Source of the DNA: Camelus ferus
Lineage: Eukaryota
Direction: 5' to 3'
Length of the DNA stretch: 64,000 bases
Assembly (NCBI RefSeq): GCF_009834535.1
Contig: NC_045696.1
Span: 22,694,001-22,758,000 of the forward strand
The position numbers and the translations under genes were made by a program. This document shows positions 19,100 to 63,083 of this stretch, one piece after another (within the stretch, counting starts at the first letter, position 1; every line of letters begins with the position of its first letter). The notes under the pieces were generated by a model. That model was not told where the DNA came from. It saw only the letters and a program-made list of their open reading frames with translations, and did not search any database.

Positions 19100-22000
19100 A
19101 ATTATTTACAGAGTTTTATATTCACAGCAGAATTGAGTGGACAGTACAGAGAATTCCCATATAGCTTCTGCCCTCACACATGTATAGCCCCTACCACTGC
19201 CTACACCCCACACCAGAGAGCTTCATTTCTGACAATTAATTAACCTACACGGACACAGTATTATCAGCCACAAGTCTCTAGTTTACATTAGGGTTTACTT
19301 TTGGTTTTGTGTATTTTATGGGCTTTGACAAATGTATGATGACATGTATCCCTCATTACAGTATCATGTAGAATAGTTTTACTGCCCTAAAAATCCTCTG
19401 TGCTCTGCCTTTTCACATCTCCCTCTCCACTAGCCCCTGGGAAATCACTGAACTTTTTACTGTCTCCATAGCTTTGCCTTTGCCAGAATGTCATATAATA
19501 GGAATCATAGAGTATGTGTCTTTTCAGATTGGCTTCTTTCACTTATCAATACATGTTTAAGGTTCCTTCATGTCTTTTTAGCACTGAATGCTTTTTCATT
19601 GGACCTATCACAGTTTATTTATGCATTTACCTACGGAAGGACATCTTGTGTTGTCAGTGTTCTGGATTTTGGCCATTCTAATAGTGGTGTATCATTGTTA
19701 TTTTAATTTATAATTCTCTGATGACACCTGATGTTGAACATCCTCTCACATGCTTATTTGCCATTTGTATATCTTCTTTGATGAGGTGTCTGTTAAGGTC
19801 TTTTGCCCGCTTTTAGATCATTTTCTTTTTGTTGAATTTAAGAGTTCTTTGTATATGTTAGATAACAGTTCTTTATCAGATTTGTCTTTTACAAATATTT
19901 CCTCCAGTTTGTGGCTTCTCTTCTCATTCTCTTGACAGGGTCTTTTGCAGGGCAGAAGTTTTTAATTTTAACAAAGTCCAGCTTACTAATTCTTTCTTTC
20001 ATGAATCATGTTATTGGTGTTATATCTAAAGCATCATCCTGAAATCCAAGGTGACCTAGATTTTCTCCTATGTTGTCTTCTAGGAGTTTTACAGGTTTAC
20101 ATTTTACATTTAGGTCTGTGATCCACTTTGAGTTAATTTTTGTGAAGTTTGTAAGATCTGTGTCTAGATTAACTTTTTTTGCATGTGGATGTCTAGTTGT
20201 TCCAGCGCCATTTGTGATAAGAACTCTCTTTGGTATACTGCATTACTTTTGCTCCTTCAGCAATGATCAGTTTACTATATGTATGTGAGTTTCTGTTCTG
20301 TTGATCTATATCTCTTTTCTTTCACAAAGACAGCACTGTTTTGATTATCTGAGCTTTACAGTAAGCCTTGAAGTCAAGTAGTATCAGTCCTCTGACTTTG
20401 TTATTCTCCCTTGTTATTGTGTTGGTTATTCTGGGTCTTCTGTCTCTCCTTAATAGATTTTAGGTCAACTTGTTGATACCCACAAAAATAACTTGCTGAG
20501 ATTTTGGTTGGAATCCTGCTGAATGTAAAGATCTACTTGGGAAGAACTGACATCTTGGCAATATTGAATTTTCTCATTTATGACCATGAATATCTCTCCA
20601 TTTTTTAGCACTTTAATTTATTTCTTCAGAGCTTTGTAATTTTCCTCATGTAGAACTTGTTCATATTTTGTTAGATTTATACCCAAGTATTTCATTTGGG
20701 GAGATGTTAATGTAAATGGTATTGTGTTTTTAATTTCAAATTCCACTTGTTCATTGATGGTATATAGGACAGTGATTGGCTTTTGCATATTAACTCTATA
20801 TCCTACACCTTCATTATAATCACTTCTTAGTTCCAGAAGTTTTTTGTTGTGGATTTTTCTGAATTTTCTGATACAATATCAATTGCAAACAAATACAGTT
20901 TTATTTCTTCCTTCCAAATCTGTACACCTTTGATTTCCTTTTCCTGTCTCATTGCATTAGATAGGACTTCAAGTTCAATGTTGAAAAGGAGTAGTGAAAT
21001 GTGACATCTTTGCTTTGTTTCTGGTCTTAGTGGGAAGACATTTAGTTTTTCACCTTTATATATGATGTGAACTATAAGGTTTTTTTTAGATTTTAAAAAT
21101 CAAATTGTGGAAATTCCCTTTTATTCCTAGTTCGCTGAGAATTTTTATCATGAATTGGTGTTGGATTTTGTCAAATGCTTTGTCTAAATCTTTTGATAGG
21201 ATTTGTGATTTTTCTTCTTTAGTCTGTTGATATGATGAATGACATTAATTGATTTTCAAATGTTGAATCAGCCTTGCATACCTGGGATAAATTCCACTTG
21301 TTCATGGTATATAATTATTTTTATACATTTTTGGGTGGTTTGGTTTGCTAATATTTTGTTGATGATTTTTGTATTTATGATCTAAGAGATATTAGTCTAT
21401 AGTTTACTTTTCTTGTAACATCTTTATCTGATTTTGGTATTAGGGCAATGTTGGTCTCATAGAATGAGTTAGGAAGTATTCTCTTTGCTTCTATCTTCTG
21501 GAAGAGATTATAGCAGACTTGGTATAATTTCTTCCTTAGATGTTTGGTAGAATGCACAAACCATCTGAAACTAGTGCTTTTTGTTTTAAAAGGTTATTAA
21601 TTGTTGGTTCCATTTACTTAATATTATATTTGCCTATTCAAATGGTTTATTTATTCTTGTGTGAGTTTTGGAAGATTGTGTCTTTAAAAGAATCTTTCCA
21701 TTTCATCTAGGTTATCAAATTTGTGGACATAGAGATGCTCATAGTAAATCTTTATTGTCCTTTTGATGTTCATGAGATTGATAATGATGCCCCTTCTTTC
21801 ATTTCTGATATTAGTATCATTTATCTTTTCTTCATAGTTAGTTTGGTTAGAAGCTTATTGGTTTTATTGAACTTTTCAATGAACCAGCTTTTGGTTTCTT
21901 TGATTTTCTCTATTGATTTCCTATTTTCATCAATCTGCTCTAATTTTTATATATAGTCTTCTGCTTACCTTAATATGTAATTCTTTTATTTTCCTAAGGT

Positions 22001-23002
22001 GGATGCTTAGGTTATTGATTTTTAGGCCTTTCTTCTTTTCTAAAATACGCATTTGGTGTTATAAATTTCCCTCTAAGCATTTCTTTGGCTGCATTCCAAA
22101 AATTTTGATAAGTTGTATTTTCATCCTTATTTATTTCTAAATATTTAAAAATTCCTCTGGAGATTTCTTCTTTGACCCATGTTATTAGAAGTATGTGGTT
22201 TTATACCCAAGTATTTTGAAATTTTCCAGCTATTTTTCTGTAATTGATTTTTAGTTTAAATCTATTGTGATCTGGGAGCATACACTGTATGATTTCTGTT
22301 CTTCTAAATTTCTTAAGGTGTGTTTTATGGCCCAGAATGTGGCCTGTCTTGGTGATTGTTCCACGTGAGCTTGAGAAAAATGTGTATTCTGCTGTTTTGG
22401 GGTGAAGTCGTCTATAGGTGTTGTTTGTATCCAGTTGATGAATGGTGCTGTCAAGTTTGACTATGTTCTTACTAATTTTATGCCTACTAGATCTGCCCAT
22501 TTTTGATAGAGAGGTGTTGAAGTCTCCAACCATAATAGTGAATTTATCTATTTCTCCTTAAACAATTTTTTTTTTTACTTTAGGTATTTGTGTTTTGTTG
22601 TTAGATATATACACGTTAAGGAATCTAAAGAAAAATACAAAAAACTTATTTACAAAACAGAAACAGACTCACAGACATAGAAAACAAACTTATGGTTACC
22701 TGGGGTGAAAGGGGTGGGAAGGGATAAATTGAGAGTTACAGATTTGCAGATACTAACTACTATATATAAGATAGAAAAACAAGTTTATACTGTATAGCAC
22801 AGGGAACTATATTCAATAACATGTAGTTGGAGTTGATTTTTATCCACTCTGACAATCTCTGCCTTTTAATTGATGTATTTAGACATTGACATTTAAAGTA
22901 ATTATTGGTTAAGTTGGATTAATATCTGCCTCATTGATTACTGGTTTCTATATGTTGCTCTTGTTCTTTATTCCTATTTTTATCTTCCACTCTTTCCCTG
23001 CC
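19100..23002 (-). mobile_element. L1MC-type (L1MC1-like) LINE, 3' UTR through ORF2
   Basis: 3' UTR ttcacagcagaattgagtggacagtacagagaattcccatatag...actgccctaaaaatcctctgtgctctgcc. ORF2 remnants [15 protein letters not shown] (21375-21557) and endonuclease VGDFNTSLS...YTFFSSSRGT...GHILGHK (22201-22533). Confidence 0.9.
22620..22827 (+). mobile_element. Young L1 3' UTR fragment truncated at both ends, inside the L1MC
   Basis: ggaatctaaag...cttatttacaaaacagaaacagactcacagacatag...agggaactatattcaata. No A-tail. Confidence 0.88.
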
Positions 23003-24736
23003 TTTTGTTGTTTTTTTTTAATTACTGAAGTACAGTTGATTTACAATGTTTTGTTAGTTTCAGGTCTACAGCAAAGTGATTCATTCATATATGTATATAT
23101 TTTTCAGATTCTTTTTCATTGTAGGTTATTATAAGATATTGAAGATAGTTCTCTGTGTTATACAATAAATCTTTCTTGCTTACCTATTTTTTATATAGTG
23201 ATGTGTATGTTAATACCAAACTCCTAATTTAGCCCTCCCTCCCTTTCCCCTTTGGTAACCATAAATTTGTTTTCTATGTCTTTGAGTGTATTTCTGGGTT
23301 GTAAATAAGTTCATTTCCACTATAAGTGATATCATATGATATTTGTCTTTCTCTGTCTAACTTACTTCACTTAATATGGTAATCTTTAGGTCCATCCATG
23401 TTGCTGCAAATGGCATTATTTTATTCTTTAAATGGTTGAGTAGTATTCTACTGTGTATATATACTACATCTTCTTTATCCATTCATCTGTTGATGGACAT
23501 TTAGGTTGCATTCATGTCTTGGCTATTGTAAATAGTGCTGCTATGACCACTGGGATGCATGTGACTTTTTGAATTAGAGTTTTTTTCCAGATATATGCCC
23601 AGGAGTGGAATTGCTGGATCATATGATTACTTTATTATTATTATTTTTTAGTGTTTTAAGGAACCTTCACACTGTTCTCCATAGTACCTACACCAATTTA
23701 CTTTGCCACCAATGGTGTAGGAGAGTTCCTTTTTCTCCACACCCTTTCAAGGATTTATTATTTGTAGACTTTTTAATGATGGCCATTCTGACTTGTGAGG
23801 TGATACCTCATTGTAGTTTTGATTTGCATTTATCTAATAAGTAGTGATATTGGTATGTTTTCTTGTGCCTGTTGGCCATCTGAATGTCTTCTTTGGAGAA
23901 ATATCTGTTTAGGTCTTCTGGCCATTTTTTGATTGAGTTGTTTGGGGTTCTTTTTATATTAAGCTGTATGAGATGTTTGTGTATTTTGGAAATTAGTCTC
24001 TTGTCAGTTACATCATTTACAAATATTTTCTCCCATTCTGTAGATCATCTTTTCATTTTGTTTGTGGTTTCCTTTGCTTTGCAAAAGCTTTTAAGTTTAA
24101 TTAGGCCCCATTTGTTTATTTTTGCTTTTAATTCCACTACTCTAGGAGATGGATTAAAAAAATATTGCTGTGATTTATGTCAAATAGTGTTCTGTCTAAT
24201 ATTTTCCTCCAGAACTTCCAAGATTTCCAGTGTTACATGTGGATCCTTAATCCATTTTGAGTTTATTTTTGTATATAGTGTTTAAAAATGTTCTGATTTA
24301 ATTCTTTTACATGTAGCTGTCCAGTTTTCACTGCACCACTTATTGAAGAGACTGTCTTTTCTCCACTGTATATTCTTGCCTCTTTTGTTGTAGATTAATT
24401 GACCATAAATATGTGGGTTTATTTCTAAGCTTTCTATCCTGTTCCATTGAGCTATGCATCTATTTTTGTGCCAGTACTGTACTGTTTTGATTACTATAGC
24501 TTTGTAGTATAGTCTGAAGTAAGGGAGCCTGATTCTTCCAGCTCCATTTCTCTTTCTCAAGATTGTTTTGGCTATTTGGGGTCTTTTGTGTTCCAATACA
24601 AATTTAAAAATCTTTTGTTCCAGTTCTGTGAAAACTGGCATTAATAATTTGCATTGAATCTGTATATTGCCTTGGGTAGTATGGCCATTTTAACAATATT
24701 TATTTTTCAAGTCCACGAACAATATATTTTCCATCT
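23003..24736 (-). mobile_element. Lineage-specific L1, 5'-truncated, about 1.7 kb
   Basis: T-run at 23011-23019, then 3' UTR and an ORF2 remnant at 24282-24641 ([29 protein letters not shown]...KDSLFNKWC). Confidence 0.93.
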
Positions 24737-24751
24737 AGAATGCTCTGAATT

Positions 24752-24788
24752 TGGGGTATAGTTCAGGGGTAGAGCATTTGACTGCAGA
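24752..24788 (+). pseudogene. Tailless retrocopy of a tRNA-Cys(GCA) 5' half
   Basis: tggggtatagttcaggggtagagcatttgactgcaga against the tRNA-Cys 5' sequence GGGGGTATAGCTCAGGGGTAGAGCATTTGACTGCAGA (2 mismatches). Flanked by agaatgctctgaatt at 24737-24751 and 24786-24800. Confidence 0.9.
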
Positions 24789-25245
24789 ATGCTCTGAATT
24801 ATTTCAAAATGATTATTTTTCCCTCCTCCTGCCTGAAATATGAGGGGATTTTCTATGATATTCAGTGTGAGAATCTGACAGATTTCCTGGAGGTAAAGCT
24901 CACAAAAATGTGATAACTTCCCCAGAACTGATACATCCTGGAGTTTTTAACTTTCAGACTTGTCCACACTGAGCCTCTGGCAATTCAGTCACAATTCAGA
25001 TTTTCCTACCTCAGTACTAGTTTCCATGGAGGTTTCTGCTGGTGGGTTTCTGTTCTGGTAAGTTGTGATTCTGTATATTTGTCTGTGTCTCTTCAATTCT
25101 GGGTACAGCAGTTTGCCTCGTGACCTCATGTCTCTGGTGGATCTAAGAAAAATTGTTGATTGTTTTAGTTTGTCCAGGTTTTTACTTTTTGTTAAAATGG
25201 AATGCCAGCTTCCAAGCTCCTTGTGTGCCATATTGGAAAGCTAGA
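24786..25245 (-). mobile_element. Old L1M 5' end, probably belonging to the L1MC at 19100-23002
   Basis: atgaggggattttctatgatattcagtgtgagaatctg...cttgtccacactgagcctctggcaattc...ggatctaagaaaaattgttgatt matches recalled L1M 5'-end consensus. Confidence 0.75.
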
Positions 25246-26019
25246 TTTATTTGACTCCTTAGACTTAATTATTACTAAATTTTCATATTAGGCCCATATT
25301 TGAATCCATCTAGAAAGACTTTTTTCATTGTTAAATGAATGAGTTTCCACTGGTTTCTGTTTTTAAGTAAACTTTCTACCTCATAGGAGAAAATCAGGCC
25401 TAATTTTAAGTGGGTGACATACTTAATAGTTTCATTAAAAAGCATAAAAATCACATTTTGTCTATGACTTGACTACTTATGTTAAATTATTTAGAAGACT
25501 AGAAAAGGAAAGAAGGATTTCTTAGTGTTTTGTTAACAGTAGTTTTTTTTTTTTTCCTTTTGCAAAATTAAGTAATGCCTGTACTTGGATGATGGCCCTT
25601 TTGAGACAAAAGGTACAGAATCTCTCCAGAACAAAAGATATTTGACCACAAACTTTTGTTTAAAATTTGTGTCATTATAAGTGTGATGAAGTCTATGGAA
25701 TCCAGGTAAAACGTCTTGATTTAAAATGATTTCTTCCTGGATCTTACAGATAATCACCACAATTTCTAGTATTTACAGTAGGTGTTTTCTTTACAACTCT
25801 TTATTCAATTGAATATTGCTAATTGGTTTTTACAACTCTTTCATATATGATTTTCAAAGTTACTTTTTTCTAACTTTTATAATTTCTTAAACAATCTTTT
25901 GTCAGTTAACTATCACCAAATCTCTATTTTTAGTAGAAAATATTATGCAATTCATGAAATTCTGTTACATACATTTACATTTTCAATCTAGATAAAGTTA
26001 TTTAAGACATATTTACACA

Positions 26020-60739: not shown

Positions 60740-63083
60740 GTTTTAAACTAACTCGTTAGAAACTTCACCTTTTCTTTAAAAAGGCAATAATTATGGACAT
60801 TTTCATTGATAATGTAATTCAGTAACTCTTTATAAATGTCAGAAAGGGTCAACTTGAATCTCTAAGATAAAACCTTTACTTTGTTATAAACCCAAATAGA
60901 AATATATCACGTACCTGCTAGGGTGTCCATACCTTGTTTGTGATGATCAGAAGTCCCGTACGTAATCTCTTTTCATTGGTAGAGAAGAGCAGGTGCATGT
61001 ACTCGCTCCACGACCACGAATGGGCGCCCTCAGCCAGCATCCAGCCTCCTTTTAGCATGTGGAATCTCCACTACGCCTTTGCAAAGGGAGTTTTAGAACT
61101 CAAGTTCACTCGGATAAAACTCACATTATAATTTCTTGAATTCTTTTCAAGAATTCATCAATCATCCAAGAACTCAACAATCCATCCTTTTTCTTTCACC
61201 TTTATTTCCCTAGCATTTAAATAAAGTGTCTTGGATATAGTAAGACTGCCACAAGGCATGTTAACTTTAATCGGGAGGGGAGCACTTTTCCAATTTACAC
61301 TTTGCCTTGCTCAGACTACTTTTCTTCATAATTTACTCCTGCTCTGCTTGGTCTAACCAACTCAGGAAGGAGGGAAGTTCCCTAAAAGGTTTTCATGGTC
61401 TTTAATGAAGCAGCCTTCATAGTTTTTTGTTTTTTTTTTTTTTAATGCAGCAAAGAGGTCTAAGAGAGAGTTTAGTTGCAGATAAAGCAGGAACAGAAAC
61501 CATATGGCAGTGTGGAAGAAATTGGGGAAAAGAAAACATGTGCTTTGGATGTAAAGTCTTTCACATAATTTTGTCAGCAAATAATTCTAGACTTTAAAAT
61601 AAATTTGTCAGCAAATAATTCTTTCAGCAGGAGGAAGGTAGCTATTGGAAGCCACAGGTCAAGGGACATTTATTTTTAAGGAAAATAGAACGTAGAAGGA
61701 ATAGTGCTGAACACACACTACAGAGCTGGAAGTCAAAAGCATAGAGACAGAATTTGAAAATGTGTAAATGGAAGAACGACTTAAATAGAGCAGAGGGAGA
61801 GAAGAGCAGAAAGCCAAGGATTGTATCTTGGAAATGAGAAAAAGAAGGTCTGTTCAAGGTGACAGAGGAAAAGCAGAGAGGATCTTTGAAGTATCTTTAA
61901 AAATTACTTTAAATATCCCTGGGGCCAGAACCTCTGGCATTCACGTGATCAGAGAAAGCACAATGATGTGATGTGTATTGCGGGCAGATGTAATTTCCAG
62001 GGTCAGACAAAATTCCATCAGTCTCCCACTTCGCTTCCTTTGTTCTTTTTCAACTTAAAACTCCCACACATGACCCGTACTTACATACTCAGTGTGTGCC
62101 TTCTCTTCCAAAGTTCTGTAGTTCTTCTCCTTGTGAATCTGAGTCCACTTCCAGACAAAAGCCCCCTGAGCGCAGACTAGGCTGTGCTGCAGTGTCTTCA
62201 CGGTCCAGGCCGCAATCAGGAGAGAGGCCAGACTGCAGAGATTAAGGTCGATCAAATGCGAGGAACCTAACGGGAGTGCCTAATAGCCAAGGCATAGACC
62301 AGCCAACTGAGCCACAGTTCAGAAAGGAGACATGCACACAGAATTAAAAATCCAGGAGAATAGAAGGAGTGTCTTTAAAGGCAGAGGACTAAAAGAGAGA
62401 TTATGACTGGAAAAAAAAAGGGTAAGTCCCTTTGTAAAGAACACTTGGGGCCTCTGGCATGGGCCTACAAGGAGCTGCTAAAAGCTCAGACTCTGAGCTG
62501 TTACCCTACTGTGTTTCTTGCTCCAAAACTGACTATTCAACCCTGCTCCTCTCCAATTATTTCAGCTTTGTATTAGGAAAAAAACAAACAAAAAAAACTG
62601 CTTAGGAATATCTGATTAAATTTTATGATAGATTCAACCTCCCCAAGGAGTAATTTGTAAGTTTAAAAGGGGTGCTTTTTTTTTTCCCAAACCCAAGCGA
62701 ACCTCTAATCAGTAGAATGTGTTGGAGGAAGTAAAACCATGGCCTGAATGTTGGTAAATCACCAACCAGTTAACTTGTGGCTTCAATTTAGCTAGGTTTG
62801 GATCGGAAATCTGTATCTTATTAGGCTAAGCCTTTTCTAATTTTGCGTTTTCTTTATTTTCCTTTACTTTCTTCTCAGTTCTTTATTTTCCATTCTTAGC
62901 TTTTCTTTGTTAAGTATGGCGCAAGATGGGAAAGGGGTTTTTGTCCATTTCTGGGTCTGGCAGCAAGGAGACGACTATGTGTCCATGGAGGCTGAAGTCA
63001 AGACCAAAGAGCCAAGAGGGAGGTGTAAATCCTTGGAAGAGAGAAACCATTCCTACAGACATGCTATTTTGCCTGTGAGGATC

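Follow-up and report, generated by a model that had tools for sequence, protein, structure and literature searches.

In the window, by which is meant the whole 64,000-nucleotide stretch of DNA analysed here, positions 24737-24800 read AGAATGCTCTGAATT, a 34-base insert and AGAATGCTCTGAATT again. The two copies of AGAATGCTCTGAATT, at 24737-24751 and 24786-24800, are identical at 15/15 positions, as the preliminary description of this DNA had stated, and the next-best matches to this sequence in the 64 kb scanned have 3 mismatches. A chance repeat is rejected on the exactness of the 15-mer pair and its rarity in the window. Complex exact 15-mer direct repeats with copies no more than 60 bp apart are found at one other place in the 64 kb. 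This other short-range exact direct repeat, at 61570-61622, is 19 bp long with copies 34 bp apart. The features of the locus and its surroundings are as follows.

19100..23014, minus strand: left part of the host repeat, an old L1; the host sequence between 23014 and 24737 is missing
23015..24736, minus strand: 3' piece, about 1.7 kb, of a mid-aged 5'-truncated L1, opposite in orientation to the tRNA copy, with a short A-tail remnant at about 23005-23020
24737..24751, plus strand: left copy of the 15-bp target-site duplication, its first base abutting the 5' break of the antisense L1
24752..24785, plus strand: tRNA-Cys(GCA) nt 1-35 (Sprinzl numbering), 34 bases, with G1>T and C11>T, no leader and no tail
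24786..24788, plus strand: AGA common to the tRNA (A36-G37-A38) and the duplication; putative priming microhomology, from the sequence and the family pattern
24786..24800, plus strand: right copy of the duplication, in register with the host repeat
24801..25250, minus strand: old host repeat, the 5'-ward part of the same old L1, about 72% to its paralogues

The insert together with the following AGA has 2/37 mismatches, G1>T and C11>T, to 12 of the 25 full-length tRNA-Cys-type genes of the same genome, the genome's own tRNA-Cys-type genes being the basis of the identification. The copied span corresponds to nt 1-35/38 of a 72-nt gene. The tRNA-Cys(GCA) 5' sequence that the preliminary description had named as the source, and the match to tRNA-Cys genes that it had expected, are therefore both found within this one genome, a 2.09-Gb assembly of 2043 contigs in which L1 is abundant, as expected of a mammal. 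A 20-mer from the insert has 35 genome matches and no control matches; 14 of the 35 are in full-length tRNA-Cys-type genes and 21 in truncated copies. Gene L090, which likewise starts TGGGG, was considered as a better source and rejected, because it differs at other positions. The full genes are clustered, with 17 of the 25 at G000:C7:6126000-6284000 and 6 at C16:48023000-48215000; gene L026 has a one-base anticodon insertion and gene L028 reads GCC.

The unique part of the insert stops at C35, slightly short of the end of the GCA anticodon given earlier, while A36-G37-A38 belong to the tRNA and the duplication alike, as had been noticed earlier from the AGA that is both the next tRNA bases and the start of the right repeat. 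No oligo(A) or A-tail is present in the sequence at the tRNA-Cys copy, in keeping with the tailless insert first described. An intact or functional tRNA gene is rejected, as the full cloverleaf is lacking with the 3' half absent and ARAGORN finds 0 tRNA genes in the window; neither ARAGORN nor Rfam makes a call on the fragment itself. With its 3' half missing, the copy would not work as a tRNA gene, and nothing in its sequence points to a function.

The host of the insertion is the old L1, of which the left and right parts are contiguous in paralogues L050-L052 and L171-L183. The insertion site aligns in 15/19 host paralogues, where the AGAATGCTCTG-type 15-mer is single and in register with the downstream sequence. 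In these 15 there is no tRNA sequence in the 70 bases before the 15-mer; the other 4/19 do not align there. Since the 15-mer is single in the paralogues, the second copy was made at the insertion and the repeat is a true target-site duplication, as had been claimed, the empty site being that of paralogues rather than orthologues. Among the listed public sequencing runs, 20/24 (three organism labels, 8 studies) carry 0.90-0.94 of the words in 24600-25500; the missing share equals an insert-sized loss, or equally a few substitutions or unindexed words, and is uninformative on the presence of the insert.

The base before the site is C in 10/16 paralogues, and the ancestral site mostly has AA before that C. 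The host sequence lost between the L1 junctions is 1.6-1.9 kb by 6 paralogues and about 2.8 kb by one, 9/16 paralogues of this comparison being unplaceable, and is 0.34 kb by L051 and L052 in a separate comparison. At 22628-22826 the old L1 is also interrupted by 200 bp from the 3' part of a younger L1, tail-less and on the plus strand, in apparent replacement of about 200 bp of the older element.

The L1 at 23015..24736 is 76% identical to the youngest full-length L1s and has a private divergence of 8.6-8.8%, with 99 private differences in 1119 columns (8.8%). Where the left flank aligns with other L1 copies, the match mostly ends at 24734-24737, and past the junction the L1 paralogues read G where the window reads A (4/4). 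This places the start of the left repeat at the 5' break of the minus-strand L1. No copy of the 15-mer is found at the L1 tail in the 64-kb window, which means that the L1 is without a duplication of its own and that the 15-mer cannot be taken for one. By one paralogue, the tail end lies at a TTTT/AA site. The junction on the minus strand reads 5'-TTCT/AG, presumably an accepted L1-endonuclease site and a variant of TTTT/AA. This flush L1 junction, absent from the preliminary description, is the one unexplained feature of the locus.

A search of the genome with a 32-mer, allowing up to 3 mismatches, gave 106 matches, 100 of them listed. Together with two loci from the 20-mer search, 102 loci were examined, of which 25 are full-length and 77 are 3'-truncated. 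One member was dropped from each of two duplicated pairs, leaving 75 independent truncated copies, a lower bound. The match to the tRNA stops at nt 36 in 47 of the truncated copies and at nt 38 in 16, and all end within nt 34-41. Scored without the overlap bases, 47/75 pass for a duplication as against 0.8% of flank-swapped controls. The genome-wide count and 3' endpoint map proposed in the preliminary description thus give at least 75 independent copies ending at nt 34-41.

The 150 bp downstream of the 75 copies yield only 4 short pairwise hits of 73-82%. These unrelated flanks share no body or tail downstream of the tRNA part, so the head of a tRNA-derived SINE is excluded, in agreement with the earlier interpretation. 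In L061, L086, L094, L107, L127 and L129 the spacer upstream of nt 1 agrees with the 5' leader of one particular gene (L026, L076, L089 or L023). In one locus (L103/L166, G000:C25:36435638, plus strand) L1 sequence of the ORF1 region, in the same sense, comes immediately after tRNA-Cys nt 1-36, with no duplication found within 7.6 kb downstream; this is possibly a sense chimera or a later rearrangement.

Tailless tRNA retropseudogenes (Schmitz et al. 2004, via Noll et al. 2015, PMC5322556) are described as 5'-complete, with a loop-truncated 3' end and no oligo(A). Their duplications are 8-35 nt long, their targets are complementary to the RNA over 2-18 nt, and some of their sources are unprocessed tRNAs (PMC5322556). 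The human list has 72 occurrences of 'Cys', with CysGCA rows among them (PMC5322556). At the present locus at least 30 nt of a 5'-complete tRNA are copied with at least 10 nt lost at the 3' end, the duplication falls within 8-35 nt and is single in the paralogues, oligo(A) is lacking, the end is in a loop with a complementary target (AGA, equal to nt 36-38) and the site is of the L1-endonuclease type. The tailless retropseudogene recognised earlier, 5'-complete, 3'-truncated and with microhomology at the nick, is thus supported. The copy is almost certainly a tailless retrocopy made by L1, with no class-level difference from those in the available part of PMC5322556, and the locus is an unremarkable example of a class already in the literature, of which this genome has at least 75 copies. 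Against the descriptions in that part of the source there are two differences: the tRNA-Cys family target is TT/CARA where the pooled target of tailless retropseudogenes is TT/WAAAA (PMC5322556), and this copy sits on an L1 junction.

In the 47 duplication-bearing copies, the base opposite C35 is C in 40/47, that opposite A36 is A in 44/47 and that opposite A38 is A in 42/47. Opposite G37 it is A in 26/47 and G in 13/47. The G at the nt-37 position is enriched over neighbouring positions (5/141, p=1e-5), while the A may reflect G-T wobble or endonuclease preference. The two bases before the duplication are mostly T, giving a family target of TT/CARA that matches nt 35-38, and it is therefore likely that the template RNA reached nt 37-38. 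The duplication begins at C35 in 40/47 copies. This copy belongs to a minority of 5/47 with T before the duplication, of which 3 start AGA. In 9/47 copies the 5' leader of a gene is matched over at least 5 nt, as against 2.4% by chance, and 6 of the 9 leader matches lie in the spacer outside the duplication. Such copies derive from precursor tRNA rather than mature halves. Pairing beyond nt 38 was not found in the family (T after CAGA in 4/20 versus 17/50). This copy has no leader either, so that it may have been made from mature tRNA or from a fragment cleaved 3' of nt 38.

The preliminary description had a copied 5' half in its headline and gave priming in the anticodon loop of a full tRNA as the alternative. 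A ready-made 5' half cut in the anticodon loop would, whatever the order of events, account for the clustering of copy ends at nt 36-38 and for the start of this copy at nt 1 without a leader. Halves are also preferred by Law and Burns for their chimeras, in the part of that work available (10.1101/2025.02.02.635956; PMC13174262). Such a template is nevertheless improbable here: the A36-G37-A38 common with the target indicates an RNA that likely reached nt 38, G37 matching is enriched across the family, and sister copies carry leaders. For 5S and U2 copies Noll et al., as far as their available text goes, saw nothing in favour of truncated templates and settled on internal priming (PMC5322556). 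On the question of halves or internal priming these two groups differ, in the sections of their papers available (PMC5322556; PMC13174262). The family statistics favour anticodon-loop priming on an RNA that extended to nt 37-38, rather than the copying of a half cut beforehand, and it is this part of the earlier proposal that fits the C35-A36-G37-A38 matches and the precursor leaders in sisters; the half of the headline fits them less well.

The sister copies also show changes at two tRNA positions. U20 and U8 are each altered in 11/71 truncated copies, whereas the rate for the remaining T positions is 3.3% (p=2e-5 each), the 71 copies being L006-L131 with four that have rearranged or shortened heads excluded. 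C20 is found in 2/25 genes and A20 in none, with A20 in 5 copies. U8 is not known to be modified. In human tRNA-Cys, U20 carries the acp3U modification, which leads to misincorporation, according to the part of PMC6895100 available. Tests elsewhere are mixed. No change at U8 or U20 was seen by eye in 23 three-mismatch tRNA-Lys rows, in which only one mismatch is free, and acp3U20a is changed in just 1/24 inexact tRNA-Ile(AAT) rows. That the copies carry a fossil signature of the acp3U20 modification is possible but not likely; a literature search for modification signatures in retropseudogenes found none on the topic.

The order of events at the L1 junction has three candidate explanations, and their relative likelihoods given here are judged, not computed. 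The somewhat favoured course, taken as a whole with its order, is that the L1 came first and that its junction was hit later by the tRNA-Cys copy. The L1 would have inserted at the TTTT/AA site near 23014, been cut short at 1.7 kb and been joined to the host at 24737, the host sequence between 23014 and 24737 being lost in that joining. A nick at the minus-strand 5'-TTCT/AG junction would then have left a 3' end ...TCT, which could pair with A36-G37-A38 of tRNA-Cys. Reverse copying would have gone back as far as nt 1, the duplication arising from a second nick at a distance of 15 bp. As 3/5 of the copies preceded by T start AGA, the junction in its present form can serve as a target.

The part of this course that concerns age can be compared with the sequence. 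The tRNA copy and its duplication have 2 differences in 64 positions against the 8.8% of the L1 (P=0.07, or P=0.02 if the T at nt 1 is junctional). This is a weak hint that the tRNA copy may be younger than the adjoining L1, given that the comparison has 64 positions, that the locus was picked for its perfect duplication and that private divergence may overstate the age of the L1. The 'fairly recent' event of the preliminary description stands to the same extent, with weak support from the 2 differences in 64 at p=0.07 against the age of the adjoining L1.

That a later hit should fall exactly on the 5' junction of an L1 requires a coincidence, put at about 1e-4 for each site and orientation if no enrichment of endonuclease sites is allowed for; 30 L1 5' ends, a lower bound, were detected in 148 kb of sister flanks. 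The C that precedes the site in 10/16 paralogues and the start at C35 in 40/47 sisters also count against the L1 having come first, and suit a tRNA copy made first by CAGA priming at the ancestral site. Removal of the host up to the edge of the left repeat would have followed, through the L1 insertion or through a later deletion that began inside the L1; the large host loss of 1.6-1.9 kb by 6 paralogues agrees with this. This order is the least probable of the three. Under it the copy could be no younger than the 8.8%-diverged L1, whereas it has 2 differences in 64, so that of the three orders this one agrees least with the age hint. An ancestral AA before the C occurs in just 1/40 sisters of the C class, and a break exactly at the repeat edge needs chance.

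The remaining explanation is one coupled twin-priming event, in which the L1 was made from the nick at 23014 and tRNA-Cys was primed at a nick of the other strand at 24737. The tRNA cDNA would have copied the 15-nt overhang to the boundary and been bluntly joined to the L1 cDNA, with the host between deleted. This is unlikely, although less so than a tRNA copy made first. Law and Burns ascribe 21 human tRNA-half/L1 chimeras to twin priming, in the available part of their work (10.1101/2025.02.02.635956; PMC13174262), and there the tRNA, from nt 1 to about 37, lies opposite to the L1 at its 5' break, as it does here. The geometry of a coupled event is thus that of published antisense chimeras. 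Such an event also predicts the flush junction, at which homology ends at 24736 in most hits and 4/4 paralogues continue with G and not A. The L1, moreover, is without a duplication of its own.

Also in favour of a coupled event, one classical antisense tRNA-Cys-half/L1 chimera is found among the sisters (L030/L167, G000:C7:30047948, plus strand). There the truncated 5' end of the L1 is joined directly to the tRNA head, and both parts lie within a single 10-bp duplication, CAGATGTGAT, whose copies are about 930 bp apart. In the available portion of the human catalogue, the chimeras likewise have one duplication around both parts and a tRNA that abuts the L1, the gap being 0-6 nt in 8 antisense rows of the 21, with an outer duplication shared by those sampled (PMC13174262). 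Here, in contrast, a tRNA half lies antisense at the L1 5' end with the 15-bp host copy between them, the duplication surrounds the tRNA alone and no 15-mer at the L1 tail encloses both. A coupled event also takes three nicks, and of its two parts the tRNA seems the younger; among 74 sisters, compared with a limited L1 library, no further example came up. No published match to the layout with the duplication inside was found in the papers covered, among them about half of the tRNA sheet of supplement 3 of PMC13174262, and the string 'tRNA-Cys' is absent from the supplements of that catalogue.

A further parallel to the locus is provided by L1 insertions with target-site deletion, reportedly described by Gilbert et al. 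in 2002. In the available part of PMC11702581, such insertions resemble the present L1 in being 5'-truncated, with an endonuclease-type tail site, no duplication and a loss of host sequence. The loss here differs in being estimated from paralogues and could be a later deletion.

If the coupled event were true, the locus would be a tRNA/L1 chimera whose duplication lies within it rather than around it and would preserve a trace of the second-strand step in L1 integration, and a second RNA would be able to complete its own duplication during L1 insertion. The single copy otherwise matters little. In sequence such copies are almost identical to 5' tRNA-Cys halves and would interfere with the mapping of tRNA-fragment reads. 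The family as a whole is a testable record of L1 priming on RNA without poly(A), and as such bears on the choice between tRNA halves and internal priming.
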